IMG/VR virus record: IMGVR_UViG_3300031951_000129
Source: an uncultured virus (IMG/VR IMGVR_UViG_3300031951_000129)
Taxonomy: Duplodnaviria; Heunggongvirae; Uroviricota; Caudoviricetes
Reading direction: 5' to 3' (one strand)
Length of the DNA: 20,000 bases
Of the stretch, positions 11,552 through 19,180 are shown one piece after another (positions within the stretch are counted from its first letter, which is position 1; the number at the start of each line of letters is the position of its first letter). Below the pieces are notes generated by a model. That model ran no database searches. It was given only the letters and a program-made list of their open reading frames with translations, and was not told the origin of the DNA. Both the position numbers and the translations under genes were made by a program.

Positions 11552-11926
11552 TTACACCGCCTTGACCGTCGTGAAGCTGACGACAATCGTGCCGTTGAAG
11601 GCTTGCGCGGAGTCGTGCGCGTTCCGCACGATGACGACGACAGACCCGGCGGCCGGGGTGACGCGGACGATGACCGGCGTACCCTGCGTGTTGGTGCCGT
11701 TGGCCACCGACGCCATCACAATGTCTGCCGCGGCGATGCGGCTGTTCGTGATGGTCAGGGTATAGTTGACGTTCTGGGCAGTCGTCAGCGACTCGCTGGT
11801 GACCTTGCCATGCAGAGCGTTGAGGGTAGCAGCGCCCGCCGTCGCGGTGGCCGTGCCGATGCCCGTGATCGCGCCAACAAAGCCGTTGGTCGACGTCACT
11901 GGGCCAGAAAACGTGGTGGAAGCCAT
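11552..11926 (-). CDS. Conserved virion protein (ASTTFSGPV N-terminus), probably capsid-associated
   Basis: Start ATG 11926 with a GAGG RBS at 11938-11935. Thr/Ala/Val-rich. This N-terminus is commonly seen in the gene following the capsid gene in this phage type. Confidence 0.7.
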   Translation of the reverse strand: MASTTFSGPVTSTNGFVGAITGIGTATATAGAATLNALHGKVTSESLTTAQNVNYTLTITNSRIAAADIVMASVANGTNTQGTPVIVRVTPAAGSVVVIVRNAHDSAQAFNGTIVVSFTTVKAV

Positions 11927-11933
11927 GAAAGGT

Positions 11934-12008
11934 ACCTCATGCACGAGGGTTGGCCGGCAGTCTGTGCATCGTCAGGTGGGCGCCTGTCTGCTCGGCTGAT
12001 GAGCCCAT
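11934..12008 (-). ncRNA. Candidate structured RNA (multi-pseudoknot leader; possibly Mu-gpT-DE-like)
   Basis: Four crossing complementary pairs within ~75 nt and two CAGAC motifs, located just downstream of a predicted promoter and overlapping the RBS. Confidence 0.55.
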
Positions 12009-12014
12009 GGCGCA

Positions 12015-12044
12015 AGTGTAGCACAGCGCCTACGGTGCTGTCTA
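12015..12044 (-). promoter_or_regulatory. Putative sigma70 promoter with extended -10
   Basis: Minus strand TAGACA-18 nt-TACACT with TGn immediately before the -10. Predicted transcription start near 12008. Confidence 0.55.
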
Positions 12045-12890
12045 CGCCCGACGAAAGCTCCACCCGGCGAAGTGTCCTTTACTCAGCGGCCGGCCCGACT
12101 CCAGCGCCCGATGCACTGTTGGAGGGGTCAGGCCGAGCACCGCCCGCAACTCCGTGATCGTAGCGTATGCGGTCTCGGCCCCCGCAGGATCGACCGCTAC
12201 CACCGGTCTCCCCATCTTGGCGCGGGACTCCGCCGTGTGCGTCTTGCCTAGCCAGTGCGTGTTGCCTTTCTGTGCCGCAGACAGTTTGGCGCGGTGTTCC
12301 GCGCTGCGAACGTGCCCCTTAGCATGCTGGTTGCCCTTGGCCGCCGCGGCCATCTTGGCCCGGGTCTCGGGAGACGGAATGAACTTTCCACCCCGGCCCT
12401 CCGCCAGCGCAGCCTGCACCTTAGCGCTGATCTTTTGCTTGGCTTCCTCCGAGTGGGTCTTGCCAGTCCGCGGGTCGTCGACCTCCCATTGCCGCTTGGT
12501 CGCGGCGCGCAGTGCGGCTTTGGCTTCGTCTGATATTGTTTTGCCGTAGCCGGGATGGGCCTCTCCTACCATCCCTCGAAACGGGCTCTTAGCGTACAGC
12601 GACAGATTGCAGCATTTGGGGTCACCCGCGCAGTCTTGCAGTAGCGCTTCTTCGCACGCCTCCATATCGGAGGCGCTCTCGAACTCGGCCAGCACGACAA
12701 ACTGAAATACGGCTTCGCCGTGCTTAGCCCACGTGGCCTGCAGCTTGGGGTTAGGATGCACCCCGGCCCGCAGCTTCTTCCTATGCGTCCGCCACCGCTC
12801 GTACAGGTTCGTGCTGCTTCCGACGTAATAGGAACCGCTGACCGTGTTGACGATCCGGTATACGGCGATCTTTTTGTTAGGGGTGGTCAC
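12042..12890 (-). CDS. Free-standing GIY-YIG homing endonuclease with NUMOD3 repeats (Seg / I-TevI-like)
   Basis: AVYRIVNTVSGSYYVGSS motif, conserved R (ERWRTH), E (CEEALL) and N (CNL). About five NUMOD3-like units (e.g. GKTHSEEAKQKIS, GKTHTAESRAKM) and a C-terminal HTH-like segment. GTG start with AGGAG RBS. Confidence 0.9.
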   Translation of the reverse strand: MTTPNKKIAVYRIVNTVSGSYYVGSSTNLYERWRTHRKKLRAGVHPNPKLQATWAKHGEAVFQFVVLAEFESASDMEACEEALLQDCAGDPKCCNLSLYAKSPFRGMVGEAHPGYGKTISDEAKAALRAATKRQWEVDDPRTGKTHSEEAKQKISAKVQAALAEGRGGKFIPSPETRAKMAAAAKGNQHAKGHVRSAEHRAKLSAAQKGNTHWLGKTHTAESRAKMGRPVVAVDPAGAETAYATITELRAVLGLTPPTVHRALESGRPLSKGHFAGWSFRRA

Positions 12891-12954
12891 AGTTTGCTCC
12901 TACACAAAGCTATATGTCGATATAGGTAGCTTGTAAAATCCTTGTAGTCAACCC

Positions 12955-12983
12955 AAAAGAAAAGGCCCGCCGGAGCGGGCCTT
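12955..12983 (-). terminator. Rho-independent terminator after the major capsid gene
   Basis: Minus strand AAGGCCCGC-TCCG-GCGGGCCTT followed by TTCTTTT: a 9-bp stem with a cUCCGg (UNCG) tetraloop. Confidence 0.9.
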
Positions 12984-13006
12984 AACTACTTGATTTTTCT
13001 TGTAAC

Positions 13007-13915
13007 TCATGCCCCCTGAGTGCCGTACATGCCCAGCGGATCGCTCACGCCGAATGAGTAACGCTCGCGTGCCTTGTACCGGACGTTTCCGCTGTCGAAA
13101 TCGCCCTCCATGGCCGTCTGCATCGCCACGCGGACGAAGTGCTTCATGCCGTTGGGGACGTCGGTCGTGAGGAACCACGCATCGTCATCGGTCAGGTAGT
13201 GGTTGACGCGATAGCCCTGCGGGATCGACCCGTTCGACTTCAGCGCGTTGATGTCGTTGTCCGCCGTGCCGACCCGCATTTCAGTCTGCAGGAGGCGCGT
13301 GGCGACGAACATCAACGCCGGGGGGACGATCAGCTTGCGCGGACGGGCAGCGATGAGCAGCCCGCGCTCGTCCTTGAACGCCGCGATGTCGATCACAGCC
13401 TGTTCGAGAGAGGTCTCGTTCAGGTCGGAGTCGGCCGCGGGGCGGTTGGCGTTGGTGACACCGGACACGGTCGGGTGGGCCGTGTTGAACAGCGTCACGT
13501 TGTCCCCTGAGAGGAACGTGCTGAACCCGGTGTTCAGGAGCGACGCCGCCTTGACCTGCTTGGTGTAGGCCATGCCGCGCGCCAGCGCCTTGGTGTACCG
13601 GGCCGAGAGCGAGTCATAGAGGTTGTCCTCCATGGCTTCCTCGGTGATCGAGAAGCCCATCGCGACGGTCTCGTGGTTGTACCGCGCGGTGAACGACTCT
13701 TGCGCCGTGTCGTAGGTGATGGACGCGCCTTCCGTCTTCACCGGTGCCGCGCCGAAGCCCGACAGCTTGACTTCTTCCTCGAAGCTGCGCTCCGAGTTTT
13801 CAGTCTCGTAGATCTCCGCATGCTCGTTTTCGTACTTGCCGTACTCAAGACCGAACAGTGCGTTGAGGCCCGGGAGGAGTTCCTTGAGGGCCTGTGCGCG
13901 AGAGATAGTTGCCAT
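13007..13915 (-). CDS. Major capsid protein (HK97 fold, Mu gpT-like family)
   Basis: MATISRAQALKELLPGLNALFGLEY...SERSFEEEVKLSGFG...ITEEAMEDNLY...KLIVPPAL...DFDSGNVRYKARERYSFG. Strong AAGGAGG RBS, followed by a terminator. Confidence 0.92.
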   Translation of the reverse strand: MATISRAQALKELLPGLNALFGLEYGKYENEHAEIYETENSERSFEEEVKLSGFGAAPVKTEGASITYDTAQESFTARYNHETVAMGFSITEEAMEDNLYDSLSARYTKALARGMAYTKQVKAASLLNTGFSTFLSGDNVTLFNTAHPTVSGVTNANRPAADSDLNETSLEQAVIDIAAFKDERGLLIAARPRKLIVPPALMFVATRLLQTEMRVGTADNDINALKSNGSIPQGYRVNHYLTDDDAWFLTTDVPNGMKHFVRVAMQTAMEGDFDSGNVRYKARERYSFGVSDPLGMYGTQGA

Positions 13916-16624: not shown

Positions 16625-19180
16625 TCACTCCTTCGATTTTGTGGTGCTGTTGTCGGTGCGGTCCACAAGCCGCTGGGACGCGGCCGAGGCGAGCTGGGTG
16701 CCTGCCTGCAGCGCCGCGCGGGATTCCGCGCTCTTGTCCGCCATGATCTGCGTGGCCAGCCGCACGCCGACACGCGCGCCCTCGCGCTCGTCTTCGGAGG
16801 CGATGCGCTCCCGGTTGACCTCGATGGTGGCCGCCTTGTTGGCCATGTCGAGTTCCAGCTTGGCCTTGTCCAGCAGCATCTGGTGCTCCGCGACGGACTC
16901 CTCCAGTTCGAGCCGGCGCTCCTTGATCTCCAGCTCCTTGAGCTGGATCTGCGTCAGCGGGTTCTGCGCCTCGGCGTCTGCCTCCGCCTGCGCTGCTTCT
17001 GCCTTGTTCGACGCCAGCAGCTTCTGGGCCGCCTCGGCCACCGCGCGGGACAGGTCGACCTCGACATCCTCTGGCAGCGGCGTCTCCTCGGCCGGCAGCT
17101 CCGTGCCCAGCTTCTTCTCGATCTCCTTGCGGTACTGGAAGGCGACGTGCTCGGTGATGTGCGACGCCATGGCGTTCTGGATAGCGGCGGCGAAGGGCGA
17201 CTGCCCGACGATCTGCTGCAGCTTGGGGTCCTCCATAGCGGCCATGTGCACGGCGATGTGCGCCTCGTGGTCTTGGTAGAGGAACGCCTTGACCGGCTCC
17301 TGACGCAGCACGGCCATGTTCTCGGCCACCGGGTCCTTGGGCAGGATCTCGTCGGGCATCTTGACGATCTCGGCGGCGTCCTGAATGCCCATCACGGTCA
17401 GCATCTGCCGGTGCAGCTTGGCCATGTCGTAGAACTGCGGGGACTGCTGCGCGAGCTGCAGCGCAGCTTGGTACTGCACGATGCGCTGGGCCATGGTGGC
17501 GGCGTTGGGGTCGGAGACGGGGATGACGTCCACGGTGTTGGGGTCGAAGTCGGCCTTGCGGCTGAACTCCTCCGGCGTGTCGTAGGAATACTCGTCGGGC
17601 ATGAAGTCGTGCACGACCCGCGCCAGAATGCGCAGCTCCTTGTGCATCGCGGCGTGCATGCGGGCCTGCACCCCGGACATCACCTTCATGGACCGCTCCA
17701 TCAGGGCGAGCGTGGTGCCCACCGGCGCCTGCGCGCTCATGTCCCCGACTTGGATATCGGCCACGGAGCCGATACGCCGCCCCTCGTCGACGATGTTGCC
17801 CAAGAGCTGGTAGAGCACCGCGGAGGGCTCCTTGTAGGGCAGCGGGAAGATGGAGTCGCGGATAGCCCCTCCGGGGATGTCGACGTCGCGGAACTCGCCC
17901 GGCATTAGCGGCGTGTTGTCGCCCTTGATGCGGAGCCCACGGGCCTTGAGCCCGGCCGGCAGGTTGGACAGCGTGCCAGCGTCGATCAGCTGGCGGAGGA
18001 TAGAGGTGGCAGACTTGGCCAGACCTCCGATGAGGTGGATGAGCCCGATGCCGTAGAAGCCCATGCCGGGCAGGTACAGGTAGTGGGTGAAGTGCATCCG
18101 CTTGCGCTTCTTGACGTCGTCCTCGTACCAATTCCGGCGGATGGCGAGGATCTTCCGCGAGGAGAGGTCGATTGTGACCACATGCGGCCGCGCGATGCCA
18201 TCGGGGTCGTCGTAGGGCTCGGGCAGGTTGATATCGACGTGCATCTCCAGCAGCGTGTGCCGCGGGTCGTCGGTCATGGGCACCTCGGTGCCCTCCATCT
18301 CGTCGTACTTCTCCTGCACGTCGCTGCGCTCGGTCACCGGGTCCGGCAGCTCGATCTCGCGGTAGAAGCCCGCCACCTGCAGTTCGAGGACCTCGTTGGG
18401 GAACTTCTTCATGACGTGCGTGTAGCGCGGGCACCGTTCGAGGTTTGACGCGCCGTACGCGATGACGAAGTCCTCTGCCGGCACGAAGATAGACACCGGG
18501 CGCTCAAGGATGGGGTCGTAGTAGAGCTTCTTGAACGCGGAGCCCGCCAGCGGCAGGCGGAACGTCATCATCTCCATCTCGTCGCGGAACTCGGTCATCT
18601 CCTCGGTGATGATGTAGTTCATCTCGTTGCGGACGCGGACGGCCTGCTCGTCTTTCTCCCGGGTGGGTGCGCCGACGACTTTCGTCTCCACCGGCCCCTG
18701 CGCGGGCATCATCTCGCTCATGGCCTGCGCTTGGAAGCGCACCACGGCCTCTGTCAGCATGGGGTGGAACACCCCCGAGGCCCCGTTCCACGGCGTCGTC
18801 CGGTCCTCGATCTTCATCCCCAAGAGGTCGAGCCCCTTGATGTACGCCTTGGCCCAGTCCTTCCGGCTCTCGCGGTCCTGCAGGAAGGCTTCCACGAGGT
18901 CCGCGGCCAGCGTCTGCAGCTCTTTATCTTCCAGCATCTCGGCGAAGTTGGCGTTGTGCGTCTCGGGGTCGTCCGGGTCCAGCGACTTCCGCCGGTCGGC
19001 GCTCATGGAGTCAGGGAACTCGATGATGACCGAGCCGTCCTCCGTGGCCATGGACGTGATGCCATCCGTGGAGATCTCCGCAGCGGCCTCCGGGTCCTCG
19101 ATCTCGATTTCGAGGGTGTCGAGGTCATCCAGCTCGATGTCGTTGGGGATCATCGGCTTTGTGATGCTGTTCACGGCCAT
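16625..19180 (-). CDS. Portal protein (P22-like, long C-terminal helical barrel)
   Basis: 851 aa directly after the terminase. Motifs HPMLTEAVVRFQAQA, LAGSAFKKLYYD, GFYGIGLIHLIGG and LRQLIDAGTLSNLPAG, with a coiled-coil C-terminus. Confidence 0.9.
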   Translation of the reverse strand: MAVNSITKPMIPNDIELDDLDTLEIEIEDPEAAAEISTDGITSMATEDGSVIIEFPDSMSADRRKSLDPDDPETHNANFAEMLEDKELQTLAADLVEAFLQDRESRKDWAKAYIKGLDLLGMKIEDRTTPWNGASGVFHPMLTEAVVRFQAQAMSEMMPAQGPVETKVVGAPTREKDEQAVRVRNEMNYIITEEMTEFRDEMEMMTFRLPLAGSAFKKLYYDPILERPVSIFVPAEDFVIAYGASNLERCPRYTHVMKKFPNEVLELQVAGFYREIELPDPVTERSDVQEKYDEMEGTEVPMTDDPRHTLLEMHVDINLPEPYDDPDGIARPHVVTIDLSSRKILAIRRNWYEDDVKKRKRMHFTHYLYLPGMGFYGIGLIHLIGGLAKSATSILRQLIDAGTLSNLPAGLKARGLRIKGDNTPLMPGEFRDVDIPGGAIRDSIFPLPYKEPSAVLYQLLGNIVDEGRRIGSVADIQVGDMSAQAPVGTTLALMERSMKVMSGVQARMHAAMHKELRILARVVHDFMPDEYSYDTPEEFSRKADFDPNTVDVIPVSDPNAATMAQRIVQYQAALQLAQQSPQFYDMAKLHRQMLTVMGIQDAAEIVKMPDEILPKDPVAENMAVLRQEPVKAFLYQDHEAHIAVHMAAMEDPKLQQIVGQSPFAAAIQNAMASHITEHVAFQYRKEIEKKLGTELPAEETPLPEDVEVDLSRAVAEAAQKLLASNKAEAAQAEADAEAQNPLTQIQLKELEIKERRLELEESVAEHQMLLDKAKLELDMANKAATIEVNRERIASEDEREGARVGVRLATQIMADKSAESRAALQAGTQLASAASQRLVDRTDNSTTKSKE

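Follow-up and report, generated by a model that had tools for sequence, protein, structure and literature searches.

What does the short gap in front of the gene that follows the capsid gene of an uncultured tailed phage encode, and what might it do for that gene? The window, i.e., the whole stretch of DNA analyzed here, consists of 20,000 nucleotides from the IMG/VR record IMGVR_UViG_3300031951_000129 (Caudoviricetes). A first-pass annotation of the window had proposed a compact, multiply pseudoknotted RNA in this gap, beginning at the predicted start site of an extended -10 promoter and acting as a translational switch or as a structural/packaging RNA. The genes in this part of the window are all on the minus strand, and the locus is organized as follows.

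16625-19180, minus strand: portal gene (context)
13007..13915, minus strand: gene for the major capsid protein, Mu gpT-like (Phage_capsid_4, 4.6e-15; Mu-like_gpT, 9.2e-10)
12962..12983, minus strand: strong intrinsic terminator after the capsid gene (context)
12042..12890, minus strand: free-standing homing-endonuclease gene of 849 nt (GIY-YIG, 4.5e-11; NUMOD3, 8.5e-26)
12039..12044, minus strand: -35-like hexamer TAGACA from the promoter scan, overlapping the endonuclease stop codon (12044-12042)
12015..12023, minus strand: extended -10 element from the promoter scan (TG 12023-12022, c, TACACT 12020-12015)
11552..11926, minus strand: downstream gene of 124 aa (MASTTFSGPV...), start ATG at 11926

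The homing-endonuclease gene sits between the capsid terminator and the promoter of the leader, and is followed by a 115-nt gap before the 11926 gene. The promoter scan found a single sigma-70-like site in 11800-13100, in which TAGACA and TACACT are separated by 18 nt and a TG lies upstream of the latter (12044..12015, minus strand; 0.3 sites expected from shuffles). The transcript would thus start at about 12008, one base before the first helix, which agrees with the start proposed in the first-pass annotation. Compared with its flanks, the 12891-13006 stretch (minus strand), between the capsid stop codon and the beginning of the endonuclease gene, is far richer in A+T; it carries the terminator and also a TTGACT...TACCTAT stretch that was not called by the promoter scan.

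The fold of the element

The element spans 12007-11935 on the minus strand (about 75 nt). It begins at the predicted TGnTAnnnT promoter and ends in the Shine-Dalgarno (SD) sequence of the 11926 gene. Three helices (P1, P2, and P3) are combined with two loop-to-strand pseudoknots (PKa and PKb). The parts are listed below in 5′ to 3′ order, with the letters a to d denoting the helices of the first-pass annotation.

12003..12007, minus strand: 5′ strand of PKa, UGGGC, at the 5′ end of the predicted transcript, with its partner in the P2 loop (helix a)
11997..12002, minus strand: spacer UCAUCA, the 5′ half of helix b, with no conserved pairing
11988..11996, minus strand: 5′ strand of P1, GCCGaGCAG, with A11992 bulged (helix c)
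11987, minus strand: J1, a junction A (A in 56/57 distinct sequences)
11973..11986, minus strand: P2 hairpin, CAGG 11986-11983 with CCUG 11976-11973 (see the in-register pair counts below)
11977..11982, minus strand: P2 loop CGCCCA, of which GCCCA 11981-11977 is the 3′ strand of PKa
11961..11972, minus strand: J2, the junction strand, ACG 11972-11970, AUGCAC 11969-11964, and AGA 11963-11961
11964..11969, minus strand: 5′ strand of PKb, AUGCAC, within J2 (helix d)
11953..11960, minus strand: 3′ strand of P1, CUGCCGGC, pairing with GCCGaGCAG 11996-11988
11949..11952, minus strand: linker between P1 and P3
11935..11948, minus strand: P3 hairpin, CCUC 11948-11945 with GAGG 11938-11935, the latter being the SD sequence
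11939..11944, minus strand: P3 loop GUGCAU, the 3′ strand of PKb, pairing with AUGCAC
11926, minus strand: AUG start codon of the downstream gene

In both pseudoknots, a hairpin loop takes up a strand from outside, and five to six of the six loop bases are paired. This geometry of a hairpin loop and an outside strand is known from kissing loops. Helices a, c, and d are present exactly where the first-pass annotation had drawn them, as is the CCUC/GAGG pairing. The pentamer CAGAC indeed occurs twice (11990-11986 and 11965-11961). The P2 hairpin was absent from that annotation.

Relatives of the element

Is this fold conserved? IMG/VR was searched with the downstream protein and the capsid protein, yielding 96 loci (denoted below by L numbers). 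By eye, the regions upstream of the homologous genes have the same architecture with different helix sequences. I built two covariance models, one (R1) on a MAFFT seed carrying the nested helices and the other (R2) with the two pseudoknots as its sole structure. R1 and R2 give the identical 63 matches in 100 sources (57 distinct sequences), with one copy in the window. Each of the 63 has the orientation of the gene following the Mu-gpT-like capsid gene and extends as far as the AUG of that gene.

The types of RNA were tallied among the 80 best capsid-gene matches to the window, a sample biased towards the window's type. There, 47 loci have the window's type, and 24 are Mu-gpT-DE-like by pattern, with L051 added by a relaxed pattern. 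As for the rest, two loci end too early, four with an inserted gene end before the next gene, and L081 and L097 look like variants. Inspected by eye, the L097 RNA (2700-2880) varies the window's type by a longer P2 loop and was missed by the models; L081 (1136-1200) has a Mu-gpT-DE-like start that breaks off past the inner hairpin. One 15-mer of one subtype was found in at least 120 IMG/VR stretches; among 80 of the matches listed, 80/80 match R2 (partly by construction), 78 of them at full length. The element is widespread in uncultured phages.

By capsid DNA, the closest phages in GenBank are Planktothrix phage Pag-Yong1 (with two further records that match equally well) and phage DSL-LC04, and the latter carries the RNA. 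In BLASTN searches against GenBank phages, an AT-rich member of the RNA family matched none and the DSL-LC04 copy matched itself alone. In Pag-Yong1 (L001, 4910-5013), neither RNA type is present. By eye, its second intergenic hairpin (…CCGUCUCC…) has a loop complementary to GGAGACGG, the SD region of the minor capsid gene; this seems to be the same theme in a different structure.

An extra gene separates the RNA from the capsid terminator in the window and in 13 loci (L005, L018, L028, L043, L052, L065, L066, L074, L083, L090, L094, L095, and L098), and the RNA and the promoter-like box stay with the downstream gene. That the RNA stays beside the downstream gene despite such inserts argues for a cis leader of this gene and against a tail of the capsid message. 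In 38/57 homologues, a TAnnnT box is found 2-14 nt upstream of PKa, and 12 of these also have the TG; many other homologues have, by eye, boxes of the TATAAA/TAAAAC type, some with TTGACA at 17 nt.

The gap between the terminator and the promoter is an insertion hot spot. GIY-YIG (+NUMOD3) genes occur in the window and in six loci (L043, L066, L098, L075, L080, and L089), and L018 has an Endonuclease_7-type gene. L045 and L055 have DUF723 proteins there, and no Pfam family was found for several further inserts. As a GIY-YIG gene adjoins the element, I also considered whether the endonuclease gene and its flanks could be a group I intron. This was rejected; no intron model matches, and relatives without the endonuclease gene carry the same RNA.

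Comparative support for the helices

A single sequence says little here. The nested minimum free energy of 11920-12045 is -42.5 kcal/mol (z = -0.30), and 71/200 shuffles fold equally well or better. The above-chance evidence for the element is comparative. In the alignment of the 57 distinct homologous sequences (A4), the whole five-helix structure is paired in 84.2% of 1517 cells. The controls gave 62.9% for column shuffles (0/500 reach the observed value) and 29.6-39.6% for slid partners. The covariation score of the whole structure is 0.560, as compared with 0.199 in shuffles. A4 was fitted to the two pseudoknots alone by R2, which favors those pairs, and the slid and shuffle controls answer this partly. 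MAFFT alone misaligned several subtypes, and the A4 rows of some subtypes are 1-3 columns out of register, including the 3′ half in the 'CUAG' subtype; thus, the pair counts given by the tool are conservative for PKa, P2, and the 'CUAG' 3′ half.

P1 is paired in 92.0% of cells, with both-sided changes in 9/9 pairs. For PKb, 86.3% of cells are paired and 6/6 pairs vary on both sides; for PKa (columns 2-7/42-47), the values are 74.9%, with some rows out of register, and 6/6. Taken together, the two pseudoknots have both-sided changes in 12/12 pairs, covering 155 cells (57 in shuffles). Hence the multiply pseudoknotted nature claimed in the first-pass annotation is borne out, in that two pseudoknots covary, and the covariation in homologous intergenic regions that it called for was found. 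In-register counts made with a script for P2 (n = 57) gave C-G in 57/57 for pair 1 and G-C in 57/57 for pair 3, and four Watson-Crick types for pair 2 (U-A 25, A-U 23, C-G 7, and G-C 2). P3 is the weakest helix; 77.9% of its cells are paired, and changes are only one-sided in the common register, as is expected where the SD sequence constrains one strand. Besides the junction A of J1, the two ends of J2 are conserved, the first being AC in 54/57 and the last AGA in 51/57 distinct sequences. This near-invariant junction (A; AC; AGA) suggests a specific tertiary structure or a putative binding site.

Helix b (UCAUCAG 12002-11996 with CUGACGA 11975-11969) fared differently. Its complementarity, with one A-C mismatch, is real, but its conservation is not (52.9% as compared with 50.3% in shuffles). 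One of its pairs forms in 0/57 sequences, and changes in the window's own subgroup (L030 and L031) are, by eye, uncompensated. Of the four crossing helices originally drawn, a, c, and d are supported comparatively as PKa, P1, and PKb, respectively, and helix b was rejected as a conserved pairing. By reasoning, the formation of a, b, c, and d all at once is also sterically implausible, as it would give loops of 0 and 1 nt for a and b.

The junction strand and the initiation region

The subtypes differ in the partner of J2. In subtype i, to which the window belongs, this partner is the P3 loop, and the SD sequence forms the 3′ strand of P3. In subtype ii, it is the loop of a GUG/CAC hairpin, with the SD sequence starting 0-3 nt after the hairpin. 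In subtype iii, J2 (CCUCA) pairs with the SD sequence itself (UGAGG). In subtype iv, J2 has GCCA, GCCG, or CCCA, which is complementary to the start-codon context UGGC or UGGG in 42/42 distinct sequences, including both CCCA/AUGGG cases. Thus, in every subtype, J2 is predicted to pair with the SD sequence, with a hairpin adjoining it, or with the start codon. By script, the SD sequence falls inside the 3′ strand of P3 or of PKb in 39/57 sequences. In the remaining 18/57, of which three are unparsed, it lies mostly -1 to +2 nt from the helix end. The CCUC/GAGG pairing of the first-pass annotation is accordingly one instance of a conserved SD involvement.

A similar relationship was found in Mu-gpT-DE proper (RF03012), the Rfam motif to which the element had been likened. 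The junction tetramer NCCA is complementary to the UGGN of the start and second codons (e.g., L034, 2771-2832). The second codon and the J2 position covary (C-G 7, G-C 7, and G.G 1 among 15 distinct combinations); GCCA goes with AUGGC and CCCA with AUGGG, and 23/25 loci pair. At its 3′ end, the RF03012 model stops short of the partner of NCCA and thus cannot show this pseudoknot.

Relationship to Mu-gpT-DE

Is the element a member of Mu-gpT-DE or a divergent relative, as the first-pass annotation had it? The RF03012 model has 53 positions and a gathering cut-off of 49 bits. It gave no match in the window at gathering, and none at E<=10 in 2 kb or in 161 nt. No Rfam family matched the window at gathering or the element's own strand at E<=10, and the checks with the Mu-gpT-DE and ribozyme models proposed earlier therefore came out negative, even at E<=10. 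Other loci of the window's type were likewise unmatched by RF03012 (0/12 and 0/8). As a positive control, 8/12 sister loci are matched by RF03012 at the same spot, with 50-74.5 bits.

Mu-gpT-DE is likewise located in the gap from a Mu-gpT-like capsid gene to the next AUG, and the capsid proteins there are 75-89% identical to that of the window. The RNA of the window is also found downstream of a Mu gpT-like gene and reaches up to the SD sequence and AUG of the 11926 gene, with the 849-nt endonuclease gene intervening. The RF03012 consensus, CCCUG-A-CAGcc...ggCUG-ACAcUAGCCAcGA-CAGG-AGAUuaACAUG, has the same core as the window, GCAG-A-CAGG...CCUG-ACG-AUGCAC-AGA-CUGC. Common to both are an outer stem, an A, an inner hairpin C-N-G...C-N-G, an AC, a variable strand, (A/C)GA, and the outer stem again. 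I made a core model of 35 positions (R3) from 33 window-type sequences and ran it unfiltered on 24 Mu-gpT-DE loci (96.5 kb). The top 11 matches (E 0.02-0.5) fall exactly on Mu-gpT-DE sites. At E<=10, 19/24 of these sites are listed, along with 12 matches elsewhere, all with E>=1.4. The single E-values are marginal, and it is the positional agreement that counts. Forms intermediate between the two types also exist.

On the other hand, there are clear differences. The outer stem has 9 bp in the window's type and 4 bp in Mu-gpT-DE, and the inner hairpin of the window's type has 3-4 bp and a 6-nt loop. PKa and P3/PKb are both absent in RF03012. The length is about 75-85 nt in the window's type, as opposed to the 53 positions of RF03012. 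The outer stem of Mu-gpT-DE (CCUG/CAGG) runs into the SD sequence (CAGGAG); in the window, P1 (9 nt/8 nt) has another sequence and is separated from the SD sequence by 14 nt and the P3 hairpin. The R3 matches on Mu-gpT-DE sites and the RF03012 matches in sister phages at the same spot indicate that the two RNAs are related. The element is a larger relative of Mu-gpT-DE, without an Rfam family of its own, so that divergent kinship holds and strict membership does not.

Mu-gpT-DE reportedly goes back to the survey by Weinberg et al. in 2017. Rfam assigns RF03012 the type 'Gene; sRNA'. The name Mu-gpT-DE and the accession RF03012 are confirmed in the text of PMC7657543. In the main text of the 2017 survey (PMC5737381), the motif goes unmentioned.

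The downstream gene

The 124-aa downstream protein matches phrog_18251 (function unknown; E 7e-5). A Pfam search returned no family, and a PDB sequence search returned 0 matches at E<=1. In the GenBank relatives Pag-Yong1 and DSL-LC04, the gene after the capsid gene is annotated as 'minor capsid protein' or 'cement protein'. A BLASTP alignment of the 124-aa protein with the DSL-LC04 'cement protein' is limited to the first 10 residues. The 'cement protein' identity is thus derived from synteny, this N-terminal match, and the GenBank annotation. The downstream proteins (62-243 aa in total) have a conserved N-terminus of about 20 aa (MASTTFSGPVTSTNGFVGAITG) followed by a hypervariable rest, with NVTG repeats in some; judging from this pattern, such a protein looks like a capsid-anchoring arm with exchangeable outer domains. 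Two other N-termini (MGFATHLGPW... and MALSTTQS...) are found behind the same RNA core. Autoregulation via the conserved N-terminal arm was considered and is unlikely, as the RNA core is kept with these two other N-termini. Since the core is kept with three different N-termini, the bound protein, if any, is more likely to be the capsid protein or a host factor.

Possible roles of the element

What might the RNA do for the gene? The fold, its position, and its pairing with the SD sequence or the start codon recur across the relatives. I consider it probable that the element is a cis-acting leader whose fold holds the initiation region in or against the knot and limits or gates 30S binding. Transcription from the promoter about 7 nt upstream of the first helix would make the RNA the 5′ leader of the mRNA of the 11926 decoration gene. 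P1 would enclose P2, and the 5′ end of the transcript would pair with the P2 loop (PKa), giving a compact scaffold. The 3′ side of the P1/P2 junction (J2, AC-N-AGA) would then present a variable strand for pairing with the translation-initiation region. In the window, AUGCAC of J2 would pair with the 6-nt loop of P3, whose 3′ strand is the SD sequence GAGG. With the ribosome-binding site inside or against a knotted structure, 30S binding would be limited or gated, and this may set the amount of the decoration protein relative to the capsid protein. Of the roles proposed in the first-pass annotation, the translational one is favored by the conserved SD involvement, an effect on translation being what I infer from it. 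One caveat is that in about a third of the sequences (18/57) the SD sequence abuts the structure and is itself unpaired, so that simple SD masking is not universal. The decoration (cement-type) protein is presumably required in large numbers, and a pure brake does not fit this well.

The latter points are those on which an alternative could be built, in which the knot formed by PKa shields the late mRNA from 5′-end-dependent RNases and raises the expression of the decoration gene. The 5′ strand of PKa begins 0-4 nt past the predicted start, the decoration protein is probably made in many copies as cement proteins generally are, and the SD sequence is not base-paired in 18/57 sequences. However, such a protective structure needs neither a J2 strand that tracks the SD sequence or start codon nor near-invariant junction nucleotides, and the minimal relative Mu-gpT-DE, which is without PKa, keeps the pairing with the initiation region; I regard this role as unlikely. 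The junction itself would be explained if the element were a switch gated by a ligand or protein (riboswitch or autogenous operator), in which binding at the junction decides whether J2 holds the initiation region. The element combines near-invariant unpaired nucleotides at a multi-helix junction with a compact double pseudoknot, both of which are characteristic of aptamers and protein operators (e.g., the T4 gene 32 leader and the S15 mRNA pseudoknot). The persistence of the RNA core with differing downstream N-termini would leave the capsid protein or a host factor as the likelier binder, if there is any. Against such a switch, no conserved alternative fold was found, its sole candidate (helix b) having failed, and no Rfam riboswitch matched, either at gathering or at E<=10; a gated switch of this kind is improbable on present evidence.

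Being small and doubly pseudoknotted, with a conserved junction, the element could also be a self-cleaving ribozyme or a processing site; it lies between two late genes, downstream of a terminator that may leak, and would separate the decoration message from read-through capsid transcripts. Yet no Rfam ribozyme family (twister, pistol, hatchet, hammerhead, or HDV-like) matched at E<=10, the order of helices presumably differs from those of the HDV-like, twister, and pistol folds, and a conserved promoter directly upstream makes processing unnecessary, so that cleavage is extremely improbable. Hardly more credible is a trans-acting small RNA or a structural/packaging RNA, the latter being the other role originally put forward. 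Rfam does list RF03012 as an sRNA gene; however, the stretch from the fold to the AUG is without a terminator, in all subtypes the SD sequence or start codon of the gene that follows is part of the fold, and element and gene always stay together. The analysis yielded nothing in favor of a structural or packaging role.

Returning to the cis-acting leader, a bolder and rather doubtful extension of it would cover the whole family, including the minimal Mu-gpT-DE. The family may be a modular 'anti-initiation' scaffold, in which a factor sensing head assembly binds at the junction and the variable strand can be retargeted to the SD sequence, a hairpin loop, or the start codon. If so, the scaffold would be a gated, programmable translational operator that matches the synthesis of the decoration protein to the capsid supply, the sensor being, e.g., unassembled capsid protein.

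Comparison with known systems

A narrow literature search found no capsid-linked pseudoknot motif. PMC10690425 describes 8,495 unnamed candidate structured RNAs (csRNAs) from IMG/VR. Its text mentions the gene 32 pseudoknot and names no motif between capsid and decoration genes, and the tables searched gave no match to two short motif strings or to four sample numbers from the element's family. Since the study mined the collection in which this RNA family abounds, the fold may be among its unnamed candidates, which would amount to an earlier anonymous listing.

Mu-gpT-DE has been an orphan, listed as a small RNA whose function is unknown. It now has a larger, doubly pseudoknotted relative, which outnumbers the filed form in the sample of the 80 closest capsid-gene relatives (47 loci, as opposed to about 25). 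Both forms are at the 5′ end of the message of the next gene rather than in the tail of the capsid message, and their one variable strand pairs with the ribosome-binding site or the start codon in every subtype; the orphan motif thereby gains a concrete, testable job, i.e., control of translation initiation of a head-decoration gene. With about 80 nt, five helices, two pseudoknots, and rich covariation, this compact natural RNA is suited to structural study.

The element can be likened to the operators in the T4 gene 32 leader and the E. coli rpsO/S15 mRNA. A relationship to these operators in sequence or model is absent. Unlike them, the element has two pseudoknots and a conserved junction, and it is not known to bind a protein. 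What it shares with them is a pseudoknot at the 5′ end of the message, by or including the ribosome-binding site, which controls initiation in those operators and probably does so here.
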